A stretch of 64,000 nt of DNA, from positions 142,854-206,853 of the forward strand of contig CAMBFG010000001.1 of the NCBI GenBank assembly GCA_945865925.1. The letters are read 5' to 3'. The notes under the pieces were generated by a model. The model worked only from the letters and a program-made list of their open reading frames with translations. It searched no databases and was not told where the DNA came from. A program made the position numbers and the translations under genes. Below are positions 3,253-16,082 of this stretch, in pieces (the first letter of the stretch is position 1; every line of letters begins with the position of its first letter). The DNA comes from Dehalococcoides mccartyi (GTDB lineage Bacteria; Chloroflexota; Dehalococcoidia; UBA2979).

Positions 3253-5514
3253 CTAGGCCGCAGCGCGGTGGGCGGTCTCCGCGCGCATCATGCCGGCCAT
3301 CGTGGTCGCGTCCACGGCGGGCGAGTAGTAGTAGCCCTGCGCGAGGTCGCAGCCGATCTCGCGCACCAGGTCGAGGTCACGCTCGCGCTCGACGCCCTCG
3401 GCGACGACCGTGAGCCCGAGGGCGTGGCCCAGAGCGACGACCGCCTCCACGATGGCACGGTCGCCCACTGACTGGTCCATGCCCTGGATGAAGGAGCGGT
3501 CGATCTTCAACGTCTGCACCGGGAAGTGGCGCAGCCGCCCGAGCCAGGAGTGGCCGATTCCGAAGTCGTCGATGGCCGTCGTGATGCCGATGGCATGCAG
3601 TTCGTGCAGCACCTCGATCACCGCGTCCATCGTCAGGCTGGCGGTGGTCTCGGTCAGTTCGAGTTCGAGCAGTTCCGGCTGCAGGCCCGTGCGATCGAGG
3701 ATGCCCCGCACGATGCGGCCGAGGCCGGGCACCATCAACTGGCGTGGCGACAGGTTCACGGCCATGCGCACGGGCGCCATGCCTTCGTCGATCCAGGCCT
3801 GCATCTGGGCACAAGACTGCTCCAGCACCCACTCCCCAACGGACACGATCAGGCCCGTCTCCTCGAGCAGGGGGATGAAGTCCACCGGCGACACCGAGCC
3901 CCGCACCGCGTGCCGCCAGCGCAGCAGCGCCTCCACGGCCCGCAGTTCCTGGCTGACCGGGTCGACCTGCGGCTGGTAGTAGACCTCGAAGGCATGCTGC
4001 TCGACGGCCTCTCGCAGGTCGGCCTCCAACGAGAGGCGGTCGCGCGCGCTGTCGCTCTCCGCGGCCGTGCCCATGCGGAAGCCGTCGCCGCCCTCGTCCT
4101 TGGCGAGGTGGATCGCGCCGTCCGCGATGCGGATCAGGGCCTCGGGGTCCTGGGCGTGCTGCGGGAACAGCGCCACACCAGCGCTCGCCGCGACCTTCAG
4201 CAAACGACCGTCGTGTGGGAACGGCTCGACGAGCGCCTGCAGGACGCGACGTGCGACGCCTTCGGCCGCCGCCGGGACGGGAAGGGCTGGTGCCAGCACG
4301 AGGAATTCGTCGCCGCCGAACCGCGCGACGACGTGCGGAGCGGGGAGGTACTCGTGCAGCCGGTCGGCGACCGCCTTCAGCAGGCGGTCGCCCGAGGCGT
4401 GCCCGAGCGTGTCATTCACCAGTTTGAACCGGTCGAGGTCGATCAGGATGACCGCCACGCACTCCTGGCCCTGCCGTGCGTCGAGGATCGCGCGCTGGAC
4501 GTGCCGGTCGAACAGGTCGCGGCTCGGCAGGCCGGTGAGGCGGTCGTAGTCGGCCATCTGCCGGATCGCGTCGCTGGCGCGGCGGGATTCGGTGAGGTCG
4601 CGCACCTCGATCAGGACGACGGTACCGGCGTCTTCTCTGAGCGCGGACAACGCGATCTCCGCCTCTACGGTCGCGCCGTCGCGGTGGCGCAGGCCAGTCT
4701 CGAACAGTCCCCCGCCGACATCGGCCCAGGCGCGCGAGGCGACGAGGCCGGTCAGCTGGTCGAGCCGCTCCGGTGCCGTCACCTGGTCGAGGTGGATCGG
4801 GACCTCCCGGCCGTAGCCGAGCATCCGCCGAAGCGAGCGGTTCACGAAGATCAGCAACCCGTCGCGGTCGACGAGCATGATGCCGTTTTGCGCGGCCTCC
4901 AGGGCGCGGCGGAGGCGCTCCTCCGAGGCACGGAGCGCGGCCTGCGCTTCCTGCTGATCACCGGGGTCGCGGAGGACACCTCGAATGCTGAGGAGGTTGC
5001 CCTCGCTGTCGCGCACCGCGCGGATCAGGGCGATCTGGTGAATGGCCTCGCCGTTGGCATGGATCCACCGCCCGCTCCAGGTGCCGGAATCGCCCGGCAG
5101 GGCAGCGCCGTCAAGGAACGGGACGGGGTCCGGGCTGATCTCGCAGATCAGCCGGCCATTCAGATCCTCCGGAGCGCGTCCCAGGATCGATCGGGATGCA
5201 CGCGACACACCGACGATGCGCCCTGACGCCGCGATCTCGAACATCATGTCGGGGAGTTCGCGGTTGACCATGCGCACCCAGCCATCCAGCAGCCCGATCT
5301 GGCGCTTCCGGCTGACCGCACCCCGGAACGCGAGGAGCGTCGCACCGCCTGCCAAGGCCAGACCAGGAGCGGCTGCGAGCGGCGCGATCGCCAAGTTCCC
5401 CACGAACGCGAGCGCAGCCCCGGCGAACAGCAGGACGTACGTCGCAACCTCCGGCCACCGGGGGCGCATCTCCGCGATCTGGTGCAGGCGTACGAGGGCG
5501 ATCGTTGGCTCCAC
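3253..5514 (-). CDS. membrane-anchored PAS-GGDEF-EAL c-di-GMP turnover protein
   Basis: Two N-terminal TM helices and PAS-like segments. Intact GGDEF (RFGGDEFLV) and EAL (EALLRWRH) motifs. C-terminal EAL fold. Confidence 0.85.
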   Translation of the reverse strand: MEPTIALVRLHQIAEMRPRWPEVATYVLLFAGAALAFVGNLAIAPLAAAPGLALAGGATLLAFRGAVSRKRQIGLLDGWVRMVNRELPDMMFEIAASGRIVGVSRASRSILGRAPEDLNGRLICEISPDPVPFLDGAALPGDSGTWSGRWIHANGEAIHQIALIRAVRDSEGNLLSIRGVLRDPGDQQEAQAALRASEERLRRALEAAQNGIMLVDRDGLLIFVNRSLRRMLGYGREVPIHLDQVTAPERLDQLTGLVASRAWADVGGGLFETGLRHRDGATVEAEIALSALREDAGTVVLIEVRDLTESRRASDAIRQMADYDRLTGLPSRDLFDRHVQRAILDARQGQECVAVILIDLDRFKLVNDTLGHASGDRLLKAVADRLHEYLPAPHVVARFGGDEFLVLAPALPVPAAAEGVARRVLQALVEPFPHDGRLLKVAASAGVALFPQHAQDPEALIRIADGAIHLAKDEGGDGFRMGTAAESDSARDRLSLEADLREAVEQHAFEVYYQPQVDPVSQELRAVEALLRWRHAVRGSVSPVDFIPLLEETGLIVSVGEWVLEQSCAQMQAWIDEGMAPVRMAVNLSPRQLMVPGLGRIVRGILDRTGLQPELLELELTETTASLTMDAVIEVLHELHAIGITTAIDDFGIGHSWLGRLRHFPVQTLKIDRSFIQGMDQSVGDRAIVEAVVALGHALGLTVVAEGVERERDLDLVREIGCDLAQGYYYSPAVDATTMAGMMRAETAHRAAA

Positions 5515-5650: not shown

Positions 5651-6907
5651 GTGCCCAGATTCGGCCCCGCGGGCACGAGGACGGCGATGGCCCAGGCAGA
5701 AGCCCCGTTCCGGCTGCGCTCGCTGGGCCTGTCTGTCTACCTGCCGACGGTGCTCTTCGCCATCGGTCAGGGCGCCGCGCTGCCAGTGATCCCCCTGTTT
5801 GCGAAAGACCTCGGCGCCTCGGTGGCGTTCGCCGCCACCATCGTCGGCCTGCGCGGGTGGGGCACGATGGTGTTCGATCTCCCAGCGGGCGCGATGATCG
5901 CGCGCTTCGGCGAGCGGCGGTCGATGCTCTTCGGCACGATCGCGCTGGCGGTGATGCCATTCATCATCCTCGTCAGTCGTTCGCCAATCGTCTTCGCGGC
6001 GCTCGTGTTCGTGATGGGCTGCTCGTTCGCCATCTGGCAACTCGCGCGCCTCGCCTACGTCACCGAACGGGCACCGCTCGAGGTGCGCGGACGGGCGCTG
6101 TCGCTCCTCGGCGGCACGAACCGCGTCGGCAACCTGATCGGGCCGCTGGTGGGTGGTGTGGCTGCCGAGGCCTACGGGCTGGAGACCGCCTTCTGGCTGC
6201 AGGCAGCGCTCTCCGTCGCCGCGTCGGCAGTGATGTATCTCCTCGTGCGTGCGGACGACCACGCCCCTGCCGAGATGTCCCACAGCGGTATCTACGGACG
6301 CTTCGCGACGGTGGTCGTGGAGCACCGGAAGGTGTTCCTCACGGCGGGCCTCGCCACCGTGGCGATCCAGGTGCTGCGCCGCTCGCGGGAGGCGGCGATC
6401 CCGCTGTGGGGCGACTCGATTGGCATGTCGCCGAGCCAGATCGGCTTCATCCTCAGTGGTTCCATCCTGATCGAGGTGCTGCTGTTCTACCCGACGGGGA
6501 TCGTGATGGACCGCTGGGGCCGGAAGTGGACCGGGGTGCCGTGCCTCGTCTTCATGGCGATCGGCCTGATGCTGTTCCCCTTCGCCCATTCGTTCACGGG
6601 CCTGCTGCTCGCGGGGATGGTCACCGGCCTGGGCAACGGCTTTGGCGCGGGGATTGCAATGACCCTGGGTGCCGACTTCTCGCCCGCTGTGGGACGCAAC
6701 GAGTTCCTAGGTGTCTGGCGGCTGGTGGGCGACATCGGCGGGGCGGCTGGACCGATGGTGATTGGGGGCCTCGCGGGCCCGATTGGGCTGGGTGGCGCGA
6801 TCGTCGCGTCGGGCGGCCTCGGCGCGCTGGGTGCGATCGTGCTGATGTTCTTCGTCGCCGAACCGCTCAAGCGGAAGCGCGCCCCGGTGGAGCCGCGCCC
6901 CGGCTAG
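5651..6907 (+). CDS. MFS transporter
   Basis: Twelve predicted TM helices with MFS-like spacing and a Gly-rich C-terminal half. Alternative start at M13 (5687). Confidence 0.75.
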   Translation: MPRFGPAGTRTAMAQAEAPFRLRSLGLSVYLPTVLFAIGQGAALPVIPLFAKDLGASVAFAATIVGLRGWGTMVFDLPAGAMIARFGERRSMLFGTIALAVMPFIILVSRSPIVFAALVFVMGCSFAIWQLARLAYVTERAPLEVRGRALSLLGGTNRVGNLIGPLVGGVAAEAYGLETAFWLQAALSVAASAVMYLLVRADDHAPAEMSHSGIYGRFATVVVEHRKVFLTAGLATVAIQVLRRSREAAIPLWGDSIGMSPSQIGFILSGSILIEVLLFYPTGIVMDRWGRKWTGVPCLVFMAIGLMLFPFAHSFTGLLLAGMVTGLGNGFGAGIAMTLGADFSPAVGRNEFLGVWRLVGDIGGAAGPMVIGGLAGPIGLGGAIVASGGLGALGAIVLMFFVAEPLKRKRAPVEPRPG

Positions 6908-8241
6908 CCATCGACGACGACCCCGAACCGACCGAGGTCACCGCGCACCGCCTCGGCATCCCCGACGGCGACGATCGTCAGGCGCTCCGGACGCAGGTAG
7001 TCACGCGTCACGCGCCACACGTCGGCCGGTGTCACGCTGCGCACGCGCGCCTCGTACATCGCCGTGTAGGTGTCGTCGAGGCCGTGCAGCGCGAGGAACT
7101 CGAGGTGGTCGAGGAGTCCGTTGAGCGTGGCGCCTCGGATGGCGGAGATACCAGCGACGTAATTCGTAATGCCCAGCACCTCGGCCTCCGGTGGGGCGTC
7201 GGCCCGCAGGCGGTCGATCTCCCCGAGGATCTCGTCGAGCGCTGGGGCCGTCACGGCTGTGGTGACGTCCGCCGCCTCCACCCAGTATGCGTCGCGGGGA
7301 CGGGTTGAGATCTGGCTACTCGGTGAGTACGTGTAGCCCTTCTGCTCGCGGATGTTCTGCGTGATCCGTGAGTTGAACGAACCGCCGAGCAGTGAGTTGG
7401 CGACTTCGAGGGCGATGTAGTCGCCGTGGCCCGGTGGTGGCACGGGGGCGCCGACGCGCAGTGTGGTCTGCTCCGAGCCCGGTCGCGCCACGAACCGCAC
7501 CACGCGGCTTCCGCTCACGTGGGCGGGCTGCACCGATGCCACCTCGGGGGTTGCCCAGCCATCCGAGGCGCGCGCGGCAGCCTCGGTCACGGCACCGGCA
7601 TCGAACTTCCCGGCCGCCATCAGGGTGGCGCGGCCAGCCCCGGTGTGACGCTCCCAGAATGCGCGCGCGTCGGCGGCGGTGAACGCGGCGAGCGTCTCCG
7701 CCTGCGGCAGGACCGTGCCGTAGGGGTGACCTCGATAGAGCGAGGCACGGAAGGTCGCGTGGGCCCGCCACGCAGGCTCTTGCGCCACGATCTCGGCCCA
7801 GCGCTGCTGGTCGGCGACGAGCCGCGCCGTCTCCTCCGCCGGGATGCGAGGCGTGCGCGCCAGCCCGATCAGCATCGATGCCGCCTCGGCGGCATGCTCG
7901 GCGAGCACCTGTGTGCGCAGCACCGTGGTGTGTTCGTCACCGTCGACGTCCAGTGAGCCCCCCATCGCGGCGAGGGCATCCGCAAACGCGGCACGGTCGT
8001 GTGTCGCACTGCCTTCGCGGAGGAAGTCGTGCAGCAGGCGATCGAGCCACGCCTGTCCCGGCTGGAGGTGTGCCGAACCCACATCGACGACCAGGCGCAG
8101 CGCGACGATCGGCACGCTCCCGCTCTGCACGAGCGCAGTGCTCATCCCCGAGGCCAACACCTCGCGCCGTCGGGGGGCCAGCACCGTGGGGCGCGGCGTG
8201 CCGAGGATCGGACGCGGCGGGAGTGTGGCCTCGACGGTCAC
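6904..8241 (-). CDS. M16-family peptidase, non-catalytic partner subunit
   Basis: Insulinase/pitrilysin-like fold but no HxxEH motif. Overlaps the downstream M16 gene by 4 nt. Confidence 0.7.
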   Translation of the reverse strand: MTVEATLPPRPILGTPRPTVLAPRRREVLASGMSTALVQSGSVPIVALRLVVDVGSAHLQPGQAWLDRLLHDFLREGSATHDRAAFADALAAMGGSLDVDGDEHTTVLRTQVLAEHAAEAASMLIGLARTPRIPAEETARLVADQQRWAEIVAQEPAWRAHATFRASLYRGHPYGTVLPQAETLAAFTAADARAFWERHTGAGRATLMAAGKFDAGAVTEAAARASDGWATPEVASVQPAHVSGSRVVRFVARPGSEQTTLRVGAPVPPPGHGDYIALEVANSLLGGSFNSRITQNIREQKGYTYSPSSQISTRPRDAYWVEAADVTTAVTAPALDEILGEIDRLRADAPPEAEVLGITNYVAGISAIRGATLNGLLDHLEFLALHGLDDTYTAMYEARVRSVTPADVWRVTRDYLRPERLTIVAVGDAEAVRGDLGRFGVVVDG

Positions 8242-9578
8242 GAAGCGGCTTCGCTCTCGGCAGCCACCGCGGCTCCGGCGTGGAGTTCGAGGATCACCCG
8301 GTTCTCCCGCTTCAAGTAGTCATGGGCGACCTGCGCCACGAGTTCCGGCGTGACGGCGGCGAAGCGAGCATCGAGGTCGTTCACACGGCTCGCGTCGCCC
8401 TCGATCAGTTCGAAGGAAGCGAGGAGGTCGGCGAGGCCGAAGCCGGGGATGTACCCGGCGACGGTGTTAAAGAGCGACGCGCGCGCCTTCGTCCGCGACC
8501 GTGCGAGCGCACCCGAGTCCAGGCCACGCTCGCGGACGCCCTCGATCACCGCGTCAAAGGCTTCGAGGATGGCGTCAGCGGTGACTTCGGCGTCGTGGAC
8601 GAGTGTCACGCACCATAGCAGCGGCGTCCGCGCATTGTGCATATGGCCGAGGAAGTTGATCCCGCCATCGACCTCCGAGGCGTACCCACGCTTCGAGACG
8701 AGTTCGGCGTGCAGCAGCGCGTCGTCGCCCTCGGCGAGCGCCTCGTGCAGCAGGCCCAGCGCGTAGTACTCGGGCGTCCCGGCGGGCGGCGTGTGGTAGG
8801 CAATCGCGATGGCCGGTGTCGGCGCAAGCGGGTCGACGCGGGTGAAGCGCTTCTCTTCCTCCTGCGGTGGTTCTTCGATCTGGGCCTGCGGCGGAGTCGG
8901 CGCTGCGGGGATGCCTTCGAAGTAGCGCTGCGCCATCTCGAAGACCTCGGCTGGCTCGGCGTCGCCGACGACCACCAACGCGGCGTTCGCGGGCGAGTAA
9001 TAGGCGTCGAAGAAGGCGCGGACATCCGCCATCGAGGCGGCGTCGAGGTCGACCATGTCGCCGTAGCCGTTGTGGGCGTTGTGCCAGTTCGTGTAGGCGC
9101 GCTCCTGCATGTCGATCCACGGGAAGGAGCCGTAGGGCCGGTTGAGCACGTTCACGCGGATCTCGTTCTTGACCACGTCGCGCTGGTTGTCCAGTTCGGC
9201 CTGCGTGATCACCGGGCCGCGCATCCGGTCGGCCTCCATCCACAGCGCCAGCTCGAGGGTGTGCGAGGGCATCACCTCGAAGTAGTTCGTGAAGTCGGTA
9301 CGCGTGGAGCCGTTGAGCAGCCCACCGTTCGCCTGGACAAGGCCCACGAGTTCCATCTTCGCCATCTGCGGCGACCCCTGGAACATCAGGTGCTCGAACA
9401 GGTGCGCGAACCCCGTCCGCCCACGCGGTTCGAGGCGCATCCCCACGCCGTAGTAGACCGCGACGCACACCACCGGCGCGCTGTGCTCGGCGGACACGAC
9501 CACGCGCAGCCCGTTCGCGAGCGTCATCCGCGCGACGGGCACCTGGAACGAGGCGGCGGTGTCGAGGCCTGAGGTCAC
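8238..9578 (-). CDS. M16-family zinc peptidase (catalytic subunit)
   Basis: HLFEHLMFQGS inverted zinc-binding motif (HxxEH). ORF runs to 9773, but a GTG at 9578 is preceded by GAGGAG+5 nt and avoids overlapping the divergent deacetylase gene. Confidence 0.75.
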   Translation of the reverse strand: MTSGLDTAASFQVPVARMTLANGLRVVVSAEHSAPVVCVAVYYGVGMRLEPRGRTGFAHLFEHLMFQGSPQMAKMELVGLVQANGGLLNGSTRTDFTNYFEVMPSHTLELALWMEADRMRGPVITQAELDNQRDVVKNEIRVNVLNRPYGSFPWIDMQERAYTNWHNAHNGYGDMVDLDAASMADVRAFFDAYYSPANAALVVVGDAEPAEVFEMAQRYFEGIPAAPTPPQAQIEEPPQEEEKRFTRVDPLAPTPAIAIAYHTPPAGTPEYYALGLLHEALAEGDDALLHAELVSKRGYASEVDGGINFLGHMHNARTPLLWCVTLVHDAEVTADAILEAFDAVIEGVRERGLDSGALARSRTKARASLFNTVAGYIPGFGLADLLASFELIEGDASRVNDLDARFAAVTPELVAQVAHDYLKRENRVILELHAGAAVAAESEAAS

Positions 9579-9717
9579 GAGGACTCCTCGATGTGAGCCC
9601 AGCGAGGCTCCTCGAATCTGTGCGAGGGATCGTACTGCCCTCACGCGGTAGTGGTGAGGGCGGTCTGGCAGCCTCACTGACAGGATGGCCAGCCCGCCGA
9701 GCGCGTAGGATCGAGGC

Positions 9718-10452
9718 ATGAACTCGCTCACGCGTGCTGCACTGCTGACGGGGATCGCCTCGGCTGCTGCCATCGCTGCGGCGACCGTCGCCCCGTGGTA
9801 CTACCAGCCGAGGACGCTCACCCGTGCGATGCAGAAGCGCTGGGGCTACGGCGCGCTCTTCCAGGTGGACACGGACGAGCCGCTGTTCGCCCTGACGTTC
9901 GACGACGGCCCGCACCCCCCGTACACCGACGCCGTCCTCGATGCCCTCGCGGCTCACGACGCGAAGGCGACCTTCTTCTGTATGGGTGAGCAGATCGAAC
10001 GCCACCCGGCGACGTTCGCCCGCATCATCGCGGAAGGGCACGAGGTGGGGAACCACTTCTGGGACGACCGCGCCGGCGTCACGCTCACCGGCGATGAGAC
10101 GGTCACCTCACTCGAACGCACCGCGGCGCTGATCGAGGATGCGAATCCGGCGCGCCTCGTCCGCCCTGCGAGCGGGTTTATCCGTGCCGAGCAGCGCCGT
10201 CTGCTGGGGGAGCGGAACTACCAGATCGTCATCGGCAGCGCGTACACCTCGGACGCGACGTACCCGCCGGCTTCCTACATGAAGTGGGCGCTGAAGCAGA
10301 TGCTGGAGCCCGGCCGCATCGTGATCCTGCACGATGGCCGGAAGCACCGCCAGCGCACCGTCGAGGTGCTGCCGGACGTCCTCGATGCAGCCGCGCGGCT
10401 GGGACTGCGTGCTGTTACCGTCTCGCAACTGATCGCCGCCGCGCGCCCGTAG
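9718..10452 (+). CDS. polysaccharide deacetylase (NodB-homology) with N-terminal TM anchor
   Basis: FDDGPHPPYT...HEVGNHFWDD NodB motifs. N-terminal hydrophobic helix. Confidence 0.8.
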   Translation: MNSLTRAALLTGIASAAAIAAATVAPWYYQPRTLTRAMQKRWGYGALFQVDTDEPLFALTFDDGPHPPYTDAVLDALAAHDAKATFFCMGEQIERHPATFARIIAEGHEVGNHFWDDRAGVTLTGDETVTSLERTAALIEDANPARLVRPASGFIRAEQRRLLGERNYQIVIGSAYTSDATYPPASYMKWALKQMLEPGRIVILHDGRKHRQRTVEVLPDVLDAAARLGLRAVTVSQLIAAARP

Positions 10453-10487
10453 ACCTCTCCGAGCGCGCCACCACGAGGGGGTGGGGC

Positions 10488-10892
10488 ATGCTCGCAGAGT
10501 TCAAGCAGTTCCTGCTTCGGGGCAACGTCGTCGACCTCGCGGTCGGCGTGATCATCGGCGTCGCCTTCGGCGGTGTCGTCACGGCGCTCGTCGAGGGCGT
10601 GTTCACGCCGCTGATCGCTGCTGTCGTTGGTCAGCCGGACTTCTCCTCGATTGGTTTCGATCTGAACGAGAGCCGGATTGAGGTCGGACTGCTCCTGAAC
10701 GCGCTCTTCGCGTTCCTGGTGGTCGCAGCCGTGGTCTTCTTCTTCATCGTCACGCCCGTCAACCGCATGACGGCGCGCGCACGCACCGAGGCTCCCGTAG
10801 AGCCGACGCTGAAGAAATGCCCCGAGTGCCTGATGGATGTCCCGCGCGCCGCGAAGCGCTGTGGCCACTGCACGAGCCCACTCGCGGCCTAG
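10488..10892 (+). CDS. mscL: large-conductance mechanosensitive channel MscL with C-terminal zinc-ribbon
   Basis: MLAEFKQFLLRGNVVDLAVGVIIGVAFG... is the canonical MscL N-terminus. ATG at 10488 rather than the ORF-track start 10284. C-terminus has CPEC...CGHC. Confidence 0.85.
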   Translation: MLAEFKQFLLRGNVVDLAVGVIIGVAFGGVVTALVEGVFTPLIAAVVGQPDFSSIGFDLNESRIEVGLLLNALFAFLVVAAVVFFFIVTPVNRMTARARTEAPVEPTLKKCPECLMDVPRAAKRCGHCTSPLAA

Positions 10893-10900
10893 GGGACGCC

Positions 10901-11776
10901 TCAGCGCGCCAGCACGGCCTTCAGGGCGGCCTCGACCTCTTCACGGGCGGCGTAGGCCTCGAAGCGGTTGGCCACGCGCCCATCTGACGCGACCACGAAG
11001 GTCCACTCATCGGTGCTGATGCCCCACTCCGCGAGGAGTGGAGAGCGGCGGGCACGTGACAGATCGCCCTTGATCTCGTGCGGGTTATCGTAAATGTCGA
11101 CGTGGATGAACTCCGCCCGCCCGGCGTACTGCTTCGCGAGCGCGCCGAGGTCCTCCACCTGTGGCCCGCAGAGCGGCGTCGTGCAGAACGCCGGTGAGGC
11201 AAACACCACCACGAATGGCCGTCCGGCGGCGAGCGCGTCGGCGATGCGCGCCCGATACAGCGCCGGATCTGCTTCGGTCGATGTCGTCAGTTCGGCGAGC
11301 GACCCAACGTCCGAGGAGATGCGGTTGCGACTGGCGGGCGCCCGGTCACCGATGGCGGGCGATTTCGGCGTTGCGGCGACCTGCACCGGGAACGTGAGGC
11401 GTGTCGCCTTCCCCTCGATGGGTACAGCAACATCGAGGGTGTAATCGCCCGTCTTCGCGAACGTCGCTTGCGTGACGTAGACGCCTCGGGTGCCGGCCGG
11501 GAAGGGGTGGTAGCGGGCGCTCAGTGCCTGCCGCTCGCTGCCCCTGCGCACGATGACCTCGATGGCTGGTGCGCGCACCAGCGCGTCGCGCGCAGTGATG
11601 GCAAAGGCGATCCGCTGTTCCCCGGTGCCGAGGTCCGGCGTGCCGAAGAGGATGTCCAGGCCGCTCGCCTCGTCGCGGTACATCGGATAGCCGCCGGAGA
11701 AGGGATCTTGCACGCGCTTCATCGTGTCGCCGCCGCACGCCGCGAGGAGGGCGACGAACGTGGCGACGAGGAGCAT
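10901..11776 (-). CDS. thioredoxin-fold (redoxin/TlpA-like) lipoprotein
   Basis: Lipobox-like LLAACGG at the internal M (11776). C-terminal thioredoxin-like fold around FASPAFCTTPLCG (CxxxC). The longer ORF extension is R/S-rich and implausible. Confidence 0.6.
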   Translation of the reverse strand: MLLVATFVALLAACGGDTMKRVQDPFSGGYPMYRDEASGLDILFGTPDLGTGEQRIAFAITARDALVRAPAIEVIVRRGSERQALSARYHPFPAGTRGVYVTQATFAKTGDYTLDVAVPIEGKATRLTFPVQVAATPKSPAIGDRAPASRNRISSDVGSLAELTTSTEADPALYRARIADALAAGRPFVVVFASPAFCTTPLCGPQVEDLGALAKQYAGRAEFIHVDIYDNPHEIKGDLSRARRSPLLAEWGISTDEWTFVVASDGRVANRFEAYAAREEVEAALKAVLAR

Positions 11777-16006: not shown

Positions 16007-16082
16007 GCCGAGGTAGCTCAGTTGGTAGAGCACGCGACTGAAAATCGCGTGGTCGCCGGTTCAAGTCCGGCCCTCGGCACCA
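16007..16082 (+). tRNA. tRNA-Phe (anticodon GAA), CCA encoded
   Basis: Hand-folded cloverleaf: 7-bp acceptor GCCGAGG/CCUCGGC, D-arm GCUCAGUUGGUAGAGC, anticodon loop CUGAAAA, T-arm GCCGGTTCAAGTCCGGC, discriminator A + CCA. Confidence 0.9.

Follow-up and report, generated by a model that had tools for sequence, protein, structure and literature searches.

MscL is the standard example of a mechanosensitive channel, and what its C-terminal bundle does is still argued: the bundle has been regarded as a sieve, as a stabiliser of the oligomer and as a tuner of tension sensitivity, and it is dispensable for gating (PMC6167328; PMC5722894). In the canonical channels of Escherichia coli and Mycobacterium tuberculosis (2OAR), an S1 helix is followed by TM1 with its RGNVVDLAVGVIIG motif, a periplasmic loop, TM2 and a basic cluster after TM2, and the protein ends in an acidic tail with the LLxEIRDLL helix, which forms the five-helix bundle. 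A canonical MscL assembles as a pentamer and has a tension-gated conductance of about 3 nS. A review of MscL calls the C-terminal helix 'generally conserved' (PMC6167328). The helix is typical of MscL but does not define it, because the channel of Methanosarcina acetivorans (MaMscL; 4Y7K/4Y7J), a natural MscL, also lacks the C-terminal helical domain and shows that the bundle is not obligatory (PMC6167328).

A second described system belongs to a different protein. E. coli RadD, a soluble SF2 DNA-repair ATPase, contains the zinc finger ZF2 (residues 432-453, 7R7J), a typical zinc ribbon in which Cys434, Cys437, Cys448 and Cys451 coordinate zinc in the crystal (PMC9049331) and which is thought to aid DNA binding.

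Here we describe an MscL encoded in a 64-kb window, by which we mean the whole stretch of DNA that was analysed (64,000 nucleotides). It shares with the canonical channels every element from S1 to the basic cluster, and its core matches that of MaMscL; where the canonical proteins have the bundle helix and an acidic tail, it has no helix but a C4 ribbon and a positive tail. Whereas MaMscL is simply without a C-terminal domain (PMC6167328), the subfamily of the window protein has a conserved replacement domain. We are highly confident of this description, that is, of an MscL whose helix has been replaced by a conserved, basic module of C4 zinc-ribbon type with fixed geometry.

The mscL locus and its start codon

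The gene occupies positions 10488..10892 of the forward strand, from an ATG at 10488 to a TAG stop codon at 10890-10892, and encodes 134 residues that run from MLAEFKQFLLRGNVVDLAVGVIIG at the N-terminal end to TLKKCPECLMDVPRAAKRCGHCTSPLAA at the C-terminal end. The ORF, its coordinates and the tail quoted in the initial annotation of this DNA were recovered exactly. A Shine-Dalgarno-like GAGGGGG, read from the sequence at 10475..10481 of the forward strand, supports the start codon because it lies 6 nt before the ATG. The mechanically called ORF extends further upstream, in frame, to a GTG at 10284. This longer version was rejected, as it had been in the initial annotation: the extension (10284..10487, forward strand, outside mscL) overlaps the upstream deacetylase gene and homologues begin at MLxEFK, so that ATG 10488, preceded by GAGGGGG, is the correct start.

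The neighbouring genes are ordinary and unrelated to mscL. Upstream lie a 753-residue PAS-GGDEF-EAL signalling protein of cyclic-di-GMP turnover (3253-5514, reverse strand), two M16-family peptidase genes side by side (445 and 511 aa; 6904-9773, reverse strand), each with Peptidase_M16 and M16_C domains, and a polysaccharide deacetylase gene (9718..10452, forward strand; PF01522, E=1e-22), whose stop codon (10450-10452) is 35 nt upstream of the mscL ATG. Judged by sequence, the M16 pair looks like a heterodimeric insulinase-type pair. The mechanical ORF of the M16 peptidase that diverges from the deacetylase (8238..9773, reverse strand) overlaps the deacetylase ORF by 56 nt at their 5' ends (9718-9773), so at least one of the two true starts lies further in. 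The other neighbours are a convergent ORF, a ROK kinase, an ABC-F ATPase and a tRNA-Phe(GAA) at 16007-16082 of the forward strand; in the 64-kb window no other tRNA or Rfam family was detected.

The convergent ORF, which is unannotated, lies on the reverse strand at 10901 to about 11770 and is separated from the mscL stop codon by 8 nt (10893-10900). No terminator-like hairpin was found in these 8 nt, and the two sites that were found are both intracoding. In its mechanical form (401 aa) the convergent ORF overlaps the ROK gene; its true start therefore probably lies further in, near MLLVATFVALLAACGG, a sequence with the look of a lipoprotein signal. A Redoxin identity for its product was considered and rejected, given that the match (E=0.11) is far below threshold, that no Pfam match at 1e-5 is obtained from the likely start, and that the ORF is not conserved beside mscL.

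The channel core has the MscL architecture

That the gene encodes an MscL, as first proposed from the letters of the DNA, is borne out by both family models and predicted structure. Residues 1-118 match the Pfam MscL model PF01741 (E=2.1e-32; score 112.5 bits, cut-off 27.4), and the NCBIfam equivalog TIGR00220 gives 95.7 bits against a cut-off of 71; the protein falls below the cut-off in all the narrower PRK equivalog models. Identity to the E. coli and M. tuberculosis channels is 30-33% over the whole alignment. The best solved relative by sequence is M. tuberculosis MscL 2oar (E=1.4e-16, residues 1-106), and the same structure was the top Foldseek match of the predicted model. Alignments with the solved MscL chains, including those of E. 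coli and M. tuberculosis, end at residue 106-108, and none of them covers the tail.

An AlphaFold2 single-chain model was built from a 44-sequence alignment that reaches down to 58% identity (mean pLDDT 74.7, about 80 over the tail). Its predicted helices at residues 2-11, 14-46 and 67-98 and its loop hairpin at 56-65 reproduce the MscL topology. The amphipathic N-terminal S1 helix (residues 2-11; 10491..10520, forward strand, as are the elements that follow) contains the invariant F5 and F8. The pore-lining TM1 helix (residues 14-46; 10527..10625) carries the RGNVVDLAVGVIIG motif, and the periplasmic loop (residues 47-66; 10626..10685) forms a beta-hairpin with model strands at 56-59 and 62-65. 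TM2 continues into the basic cytoplasmic extension NRMTARAR (residues 67-98; 10686..10781), and the two together align to the TM2 of the E. coli channel and its RKKEE region. Next comes a proline-rich linker, TEAPVEPTLK (residues 99-108; 10782..10811), which has no secondary structure in the model; its family consensus is E-P-P-A-D-P-T-T-K, and P106 and T107 are nearly invariant in the 44-sequence alignment.

The tail is predicted to be a C4 zinc ribbon

The protein has only four cysteines, C111 (10818-20), C114 (10827-29), C125 (10860-62) and C128 (10869-71), which form the pattern CPEC-x10-CGHC over residues 111-128. They lie in the segment KKCPECLMDVPRAAKRCGHCTS (residues 109-130; 10812..10877, forward strand), which the initial annotation had read as a zinc-ribbon-type tail, a reading with which profile matches and the model agree. 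Scanned alone, the tail matches UPF0547 (PF10571; E=4e-5, 23.9 bits, or 20.4 bits for the full protein, with a cut-off of 29), DZR (PF12773; 16.3-20.1 bits, cut-off 27.3) and DZR_2. UPF0547, DZR and Zn_Ribbon_1, of CL0167, the clan of zinc beta-ribbons, are the best matches of the tail yet stay below their curated thresholds, and the window protein itself passes none of the Pfam gathering thresholds of the zinc-ribbon families UPF0547 and DZR. The family-consensus tail comes to 28.2 bits against the UPF0547 cut-off of 29. When four tails were scanned alone, they matched UPF0547 with E=2e-6 to 5e-4, DZR and, for two homologue tails, Zn_Ribbon_1 (PF13240), and precomputed PF10571 matches are present on some homologues. 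The Pfam description of UPF0547 is that of an uncharacterised protein family only.

The model places strands at 108-110 and 117-119 (pLDDT about 80), so that the tail has the two CxxC knuckles and the short beta-hairpin of a C4 zinc ribbon. RadD ZF2, aligned against KKCPECLSEIPIAAKRCAHCTS, has the same C-x2-C-x10-C-x2-C spacing, and in Foldseek the modelled ribbon superposes on it over 27 columns with an rmsd of 0.4 A and 37% identity. Since the sequence match is not significant alone (E=0.08), RadD ZF2 is a structural analogue and not a demonstrated homologue. After RadD 7r7j, the Foldseek matches of the tail were RanBP2 and NZF fingers (rmsd 0.4-1.3 A, RadD ZF2 included), with ribosomal zinc ribbons also among them. 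At E about 1 these structural matches do not reach statistical significance, a consequence of the small size of the domain. No rubredoxin family occurred among the Pfam matches listed for the four tails at E up to 10, which for the fourth tail are the top 25 of 43 families. The sequence may nevertheless be compatible with iron instead of zinc at the four cysteines.

The ribbon replaces the C-terminal helix

The initial annotation had described the ribbon as an addition that comes behind the cytoplasmic helix. When the protein is aligned with five helix-type relatives and with the MscL of E. coli and of M. tuberculosis, the ribbon instead sits in the very columns of the LLTEIRDLL helix. AlphaFold2 predicts no helix beyond residue 98, and the LLxEIRDLL motif was found in none of 240 ribbon-type MscLs, the two tail types being mutually exclusive. 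The ribbon is therefore a domain replacement, and both 'appended' and 'after the cytoplasmic helix' are wrong. In a neighbour-joining tree of the roughly 100-residue core the ribbon and helix types are intermixed, with 13 parsimony changes, which we do not read as evidence for repeated swaps.

Distribution of ribbon-tailed MscL proteins

A word-indexed search yielded at least 8000 matches, and the four-cysteine tail was present in 119 of the 120 best, down to 58% identity. The sole exception, P0020 (123 aa), reads KKCPADVP, a 4-residue deletion having removed its second cysteine, either because this copy has decayed or because it was misassembled. With one genome taken per GTDB species, a scan gave at least 597 confirmed relatives; one of the search patterns fits canonical MscL as well, so these matches are not assignable to a tail type. 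The tail was found in all 80 loci kept, one of which is cut by a contig end. A search with the core only (residues 1-103), which reduces bias, was made against 1.84 billion representatives at 50% identity and returned 12,180 matches; among the best 150 of these, 34 were of the ribbon type and about 21 of the helix type, and the others were fragments or visibly frameshifted metagenomic calls.

Carriers of the ribbon type are spread across at least 10 phyla. Judged by their record titles, they include several classes of Acidobacteriota, with the cultured Acidipila rosea DSM 103428, as well as Chloroflexota, Dormibacterota, Paceibacterota and Saccharibacteria. Within the Actinomycetota they were found in Solirubrobacterales, Gaiellaceae, Thermoleophilia and three cultured Nonomuraea, and further carriers are Armatimonadales, Vulcanimicrobiota, Candidatus Binatus, a Gloeobacterales cyanobacterium and 'delta proteobacteria'. 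The closest MscL relatives of the window protein are labelled Dehalococcoidia MAGs.

Some homologues depart from the common form. Five Thermomicrobiales-like proteins (P0040, P0052, P0125, P0126 and P0193) have an N-terminal extension of 15-50 residues and a first knuckle that reads CPYC[IL]N instead of CPECLS. Three others (P0247, P0236 and P0249) carry 40-56 extra, partly low-complexity residues beyond the last cysteine. In P0162 (283 aa) a long Cys-rich region follows 'KKCP' and may reflect a fusion or a frameshift. Actinomycetes typically have a helix-type MscL like that of M. tuberculosis; the Nonomuraea loci L064, L074 and L077 are of the ribbon type, and these genomes may hold both paralogues, which, if true, would be a natural test of sub-functionalisation.

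The rarity implied by the initial annotation is thus not upheld. It had also asked whether the tail was both common and well described among homologues: it is common, but searches of the literature turned up no account of an MscL tail that is Cys-rich or of zinc-ribbon type, and in databases the relatives carry the plain name 'large conductance mechanosensitive channel protein MscL'. The one trace met with was the remark in a preprint that clan CL0167 contains a large-conductance mechanosensitive channel model (10.1101/2022.09.01.506207), which we would read as a database-level sign of the overlap between MscL and zinc ribbons. The ribbon-tailed MscL is a widespread, undescribed variant of a known channel, neither specific to this window nor categorically new.

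These data also bear on the possibility that the tail is an artefact, being untranslated owing to a frameshift, an early stop or mis-assembly, or being a chance cysteine pattern in a GC-rich frame. G+C content is uniformly 68-71% in the window, many spurious overlapping ORFs occur on both strands of the region, and several metagenomic family representatives are visibly frameshifted in the tail. The reading frame is nevertheless continuous to the TAG at 10890, without the undetected frameshift against which the initial annotation had cautioned, and a protein identical to that of the window occurs on three contigs, up to 579 kb long, of a collection that combines NCBI, ENA and Logan data. With the tail kept in frame in 80 of 80 independent genomes, and with invariant cysteines there and in 119 of the 120 best matches, the conservation data rule this explanation out, and we give it practically no credence.

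Conservation, geometry and charge of the ribbon

The homologue alignment that had been suggested as a check was run, and it returned a tail under strong constraint. In the 44 sequences the four cysteines, P119 and A122 are invariant, and P106, T107, E113, L115 and R124 are nearly so. The spacer between the cysteine pairs is 10 residues long in 240 of 240 ribbon-type homologues, no further cysteine occurs in 230 of these 240 proteins, and 18-19 residues lie between the first cysteine and the P-x-N motif with which TM2 ends in 206 of 232 homologues (89%). Mean column identity is highest in TM1 (0.76), followed by the ribbon (0.71), TM2 (0.60) and the periplasmic loop (0.54). The ribbon is basic, with a mean net charge of +1.85 and a charge of at least +1 in 156 of 161 ribbons, whereas helix-type tails are acidic (mean -1.1; E. 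coli -3).

No conserved partner gene was found among the ORFs within 3-4 kb of mscL in 81 loci, clustered by BLASTP. The only widespread clusters were MscL itself and antisense ORFs overlapping mscL, all others occurring in at most 8 loci. The antisense ORFs recur in 28 loci (for example at 220-576 on the reverse strand of L007); they represent no real gene but a mechanical artefact, and their clustering comes only from the conservation of the sense gene in GC-rich DNA.

A proposed metal-stabilised cap and a possible docking module

The reading that we favour, and as a whole consider slightly more likely than not, is that the ribbon is a cytoplasmic cap, stabilised by metal, in the place of the helical bundle. 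By analogy with RadD ZF2 (PMC9049331), each subunit would bind one structural metal ion, most likely Zn2+, through its four cysteines. With metal bound in each ribbon, the pentamer would carry five small, rigid, positive knobs on short proline-rich linkers, just below its cytoplasmic mouth. There the ribbons would take over the roles of the bundle, namely stabilising the assembly, setting the tension threshold and the sub-conductance behaviour, and acting as a pre-filter that limits the loss of large solutes. The ribbon would then be a structural substitute for the bundle and not a dedicated sensor, and the absence of a conserved neighbour in 81 loci is what is expected of a built-in structural element. 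We know of no zinc ribbons that pentamerise as a coiled-coil helix does, so the phrase 'substitute for the bundle' may overstate the equivalence. It also speaks against the cap that the conservation of the ribbon, as high as that of the pore helices, would seem to exceed what a passive cap needs.

The net charge of the ribbon, +1.9, is opposite to that of helix tails, -1.1; this is a further point against the cap and a hint of another kind of interaction, perhaps with the head groups of anionic lipids. The ribbon might accordingly be a docking module that binds anionic head groups of the inner leaflet, a protein partner or nucleic acid, and so positions or regulates the channel. Besides the positive charge in 156 of 161 ribbons, the high conservation of the linker and of the flanking KK would fit such a module, as would a degree of conservation equal to that of the pore helices and the fact that the closest structural matches (RadD ZF2, RanBP2, NZF and ribosomal zinc ribbons) are ligand-binding fingers. 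Those structural matches are insignificant, however; the most conserved positions (the four cysteines, I/V-P and A) belong to the generic zinc-ribbon fold and not to an extra surface, and none of the 81 loci offers a conserved neighbouring gene that could encode a partner. We regard docking as a tentative and rather unlikely alternative to the cap.

A possible redox or metal switch

The initial annotation suggested that the tail could couple gating to metal or redox state or could mediate partner binding, and neither gene neighbourhoods nor the range of carriers spoke for these ideas. In a redox or metal switch, oxidation of the Zn(Cys)4 site or loss of zinc would unfold the ribbons or cross-link neighbouring subunits; the channel would thereby be locked or its gating threshold moved, and the osmotic valve would answer to oxidative or metal stress. 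Other proteins, Hsp33 and RsrA among them, have redox switches of the Zn(Cys)4 kind, and four invariant, closely spaced thiols per subunit would put twenty in each channel, clustered near the five-fold axis. The product of the convergent neighbour moreover has the weak Redoxin match noted above, but that match is far below threshold, and redox or metal-homeostasis genes are not conserved beside mscL in the 81 loci. The motif itself, like those of UPF0547, DZR and RadD ZF2, is that of a generic structural zinc ribbon. Oxygen exposure differs widely between soil Acidobacteriota or Actinomycetota and CPR bacteria, so the carriers have no obvious tie to an oxidative lifestyle. Taken together, we consider the switch decidedly unlikely.

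More specifically, five Zn(Cys)4 ribbons might form a redox- or zinc-sensitive latch beneath the pore that alters the gating threshold, a proposal that we hold to be very doubtful. If it were true, an osmotic emergency valve gated by chemistry as well as by tension would exist across Acidobacteriota, Chloroflexota, CPR bacteria and some Actinomycetota.

Implications for the MscL family

Our finding is a property of a large protein subfamily that is already in the databases as plain 'MscL'. To our knowledge, all solved full-length MscL structures and nearly all electrophysiology concern helix-type channels. The ribbon subfamily is a natural experiment on what the cytoplasmic domain of MscL must provide, and on whether a module other than a coiled coil is able to do the same. 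As the ribbon type is present in cultured strains, among them Acidipila rosea DSM 103428 and several Nonomuraea, this question is directly testable.
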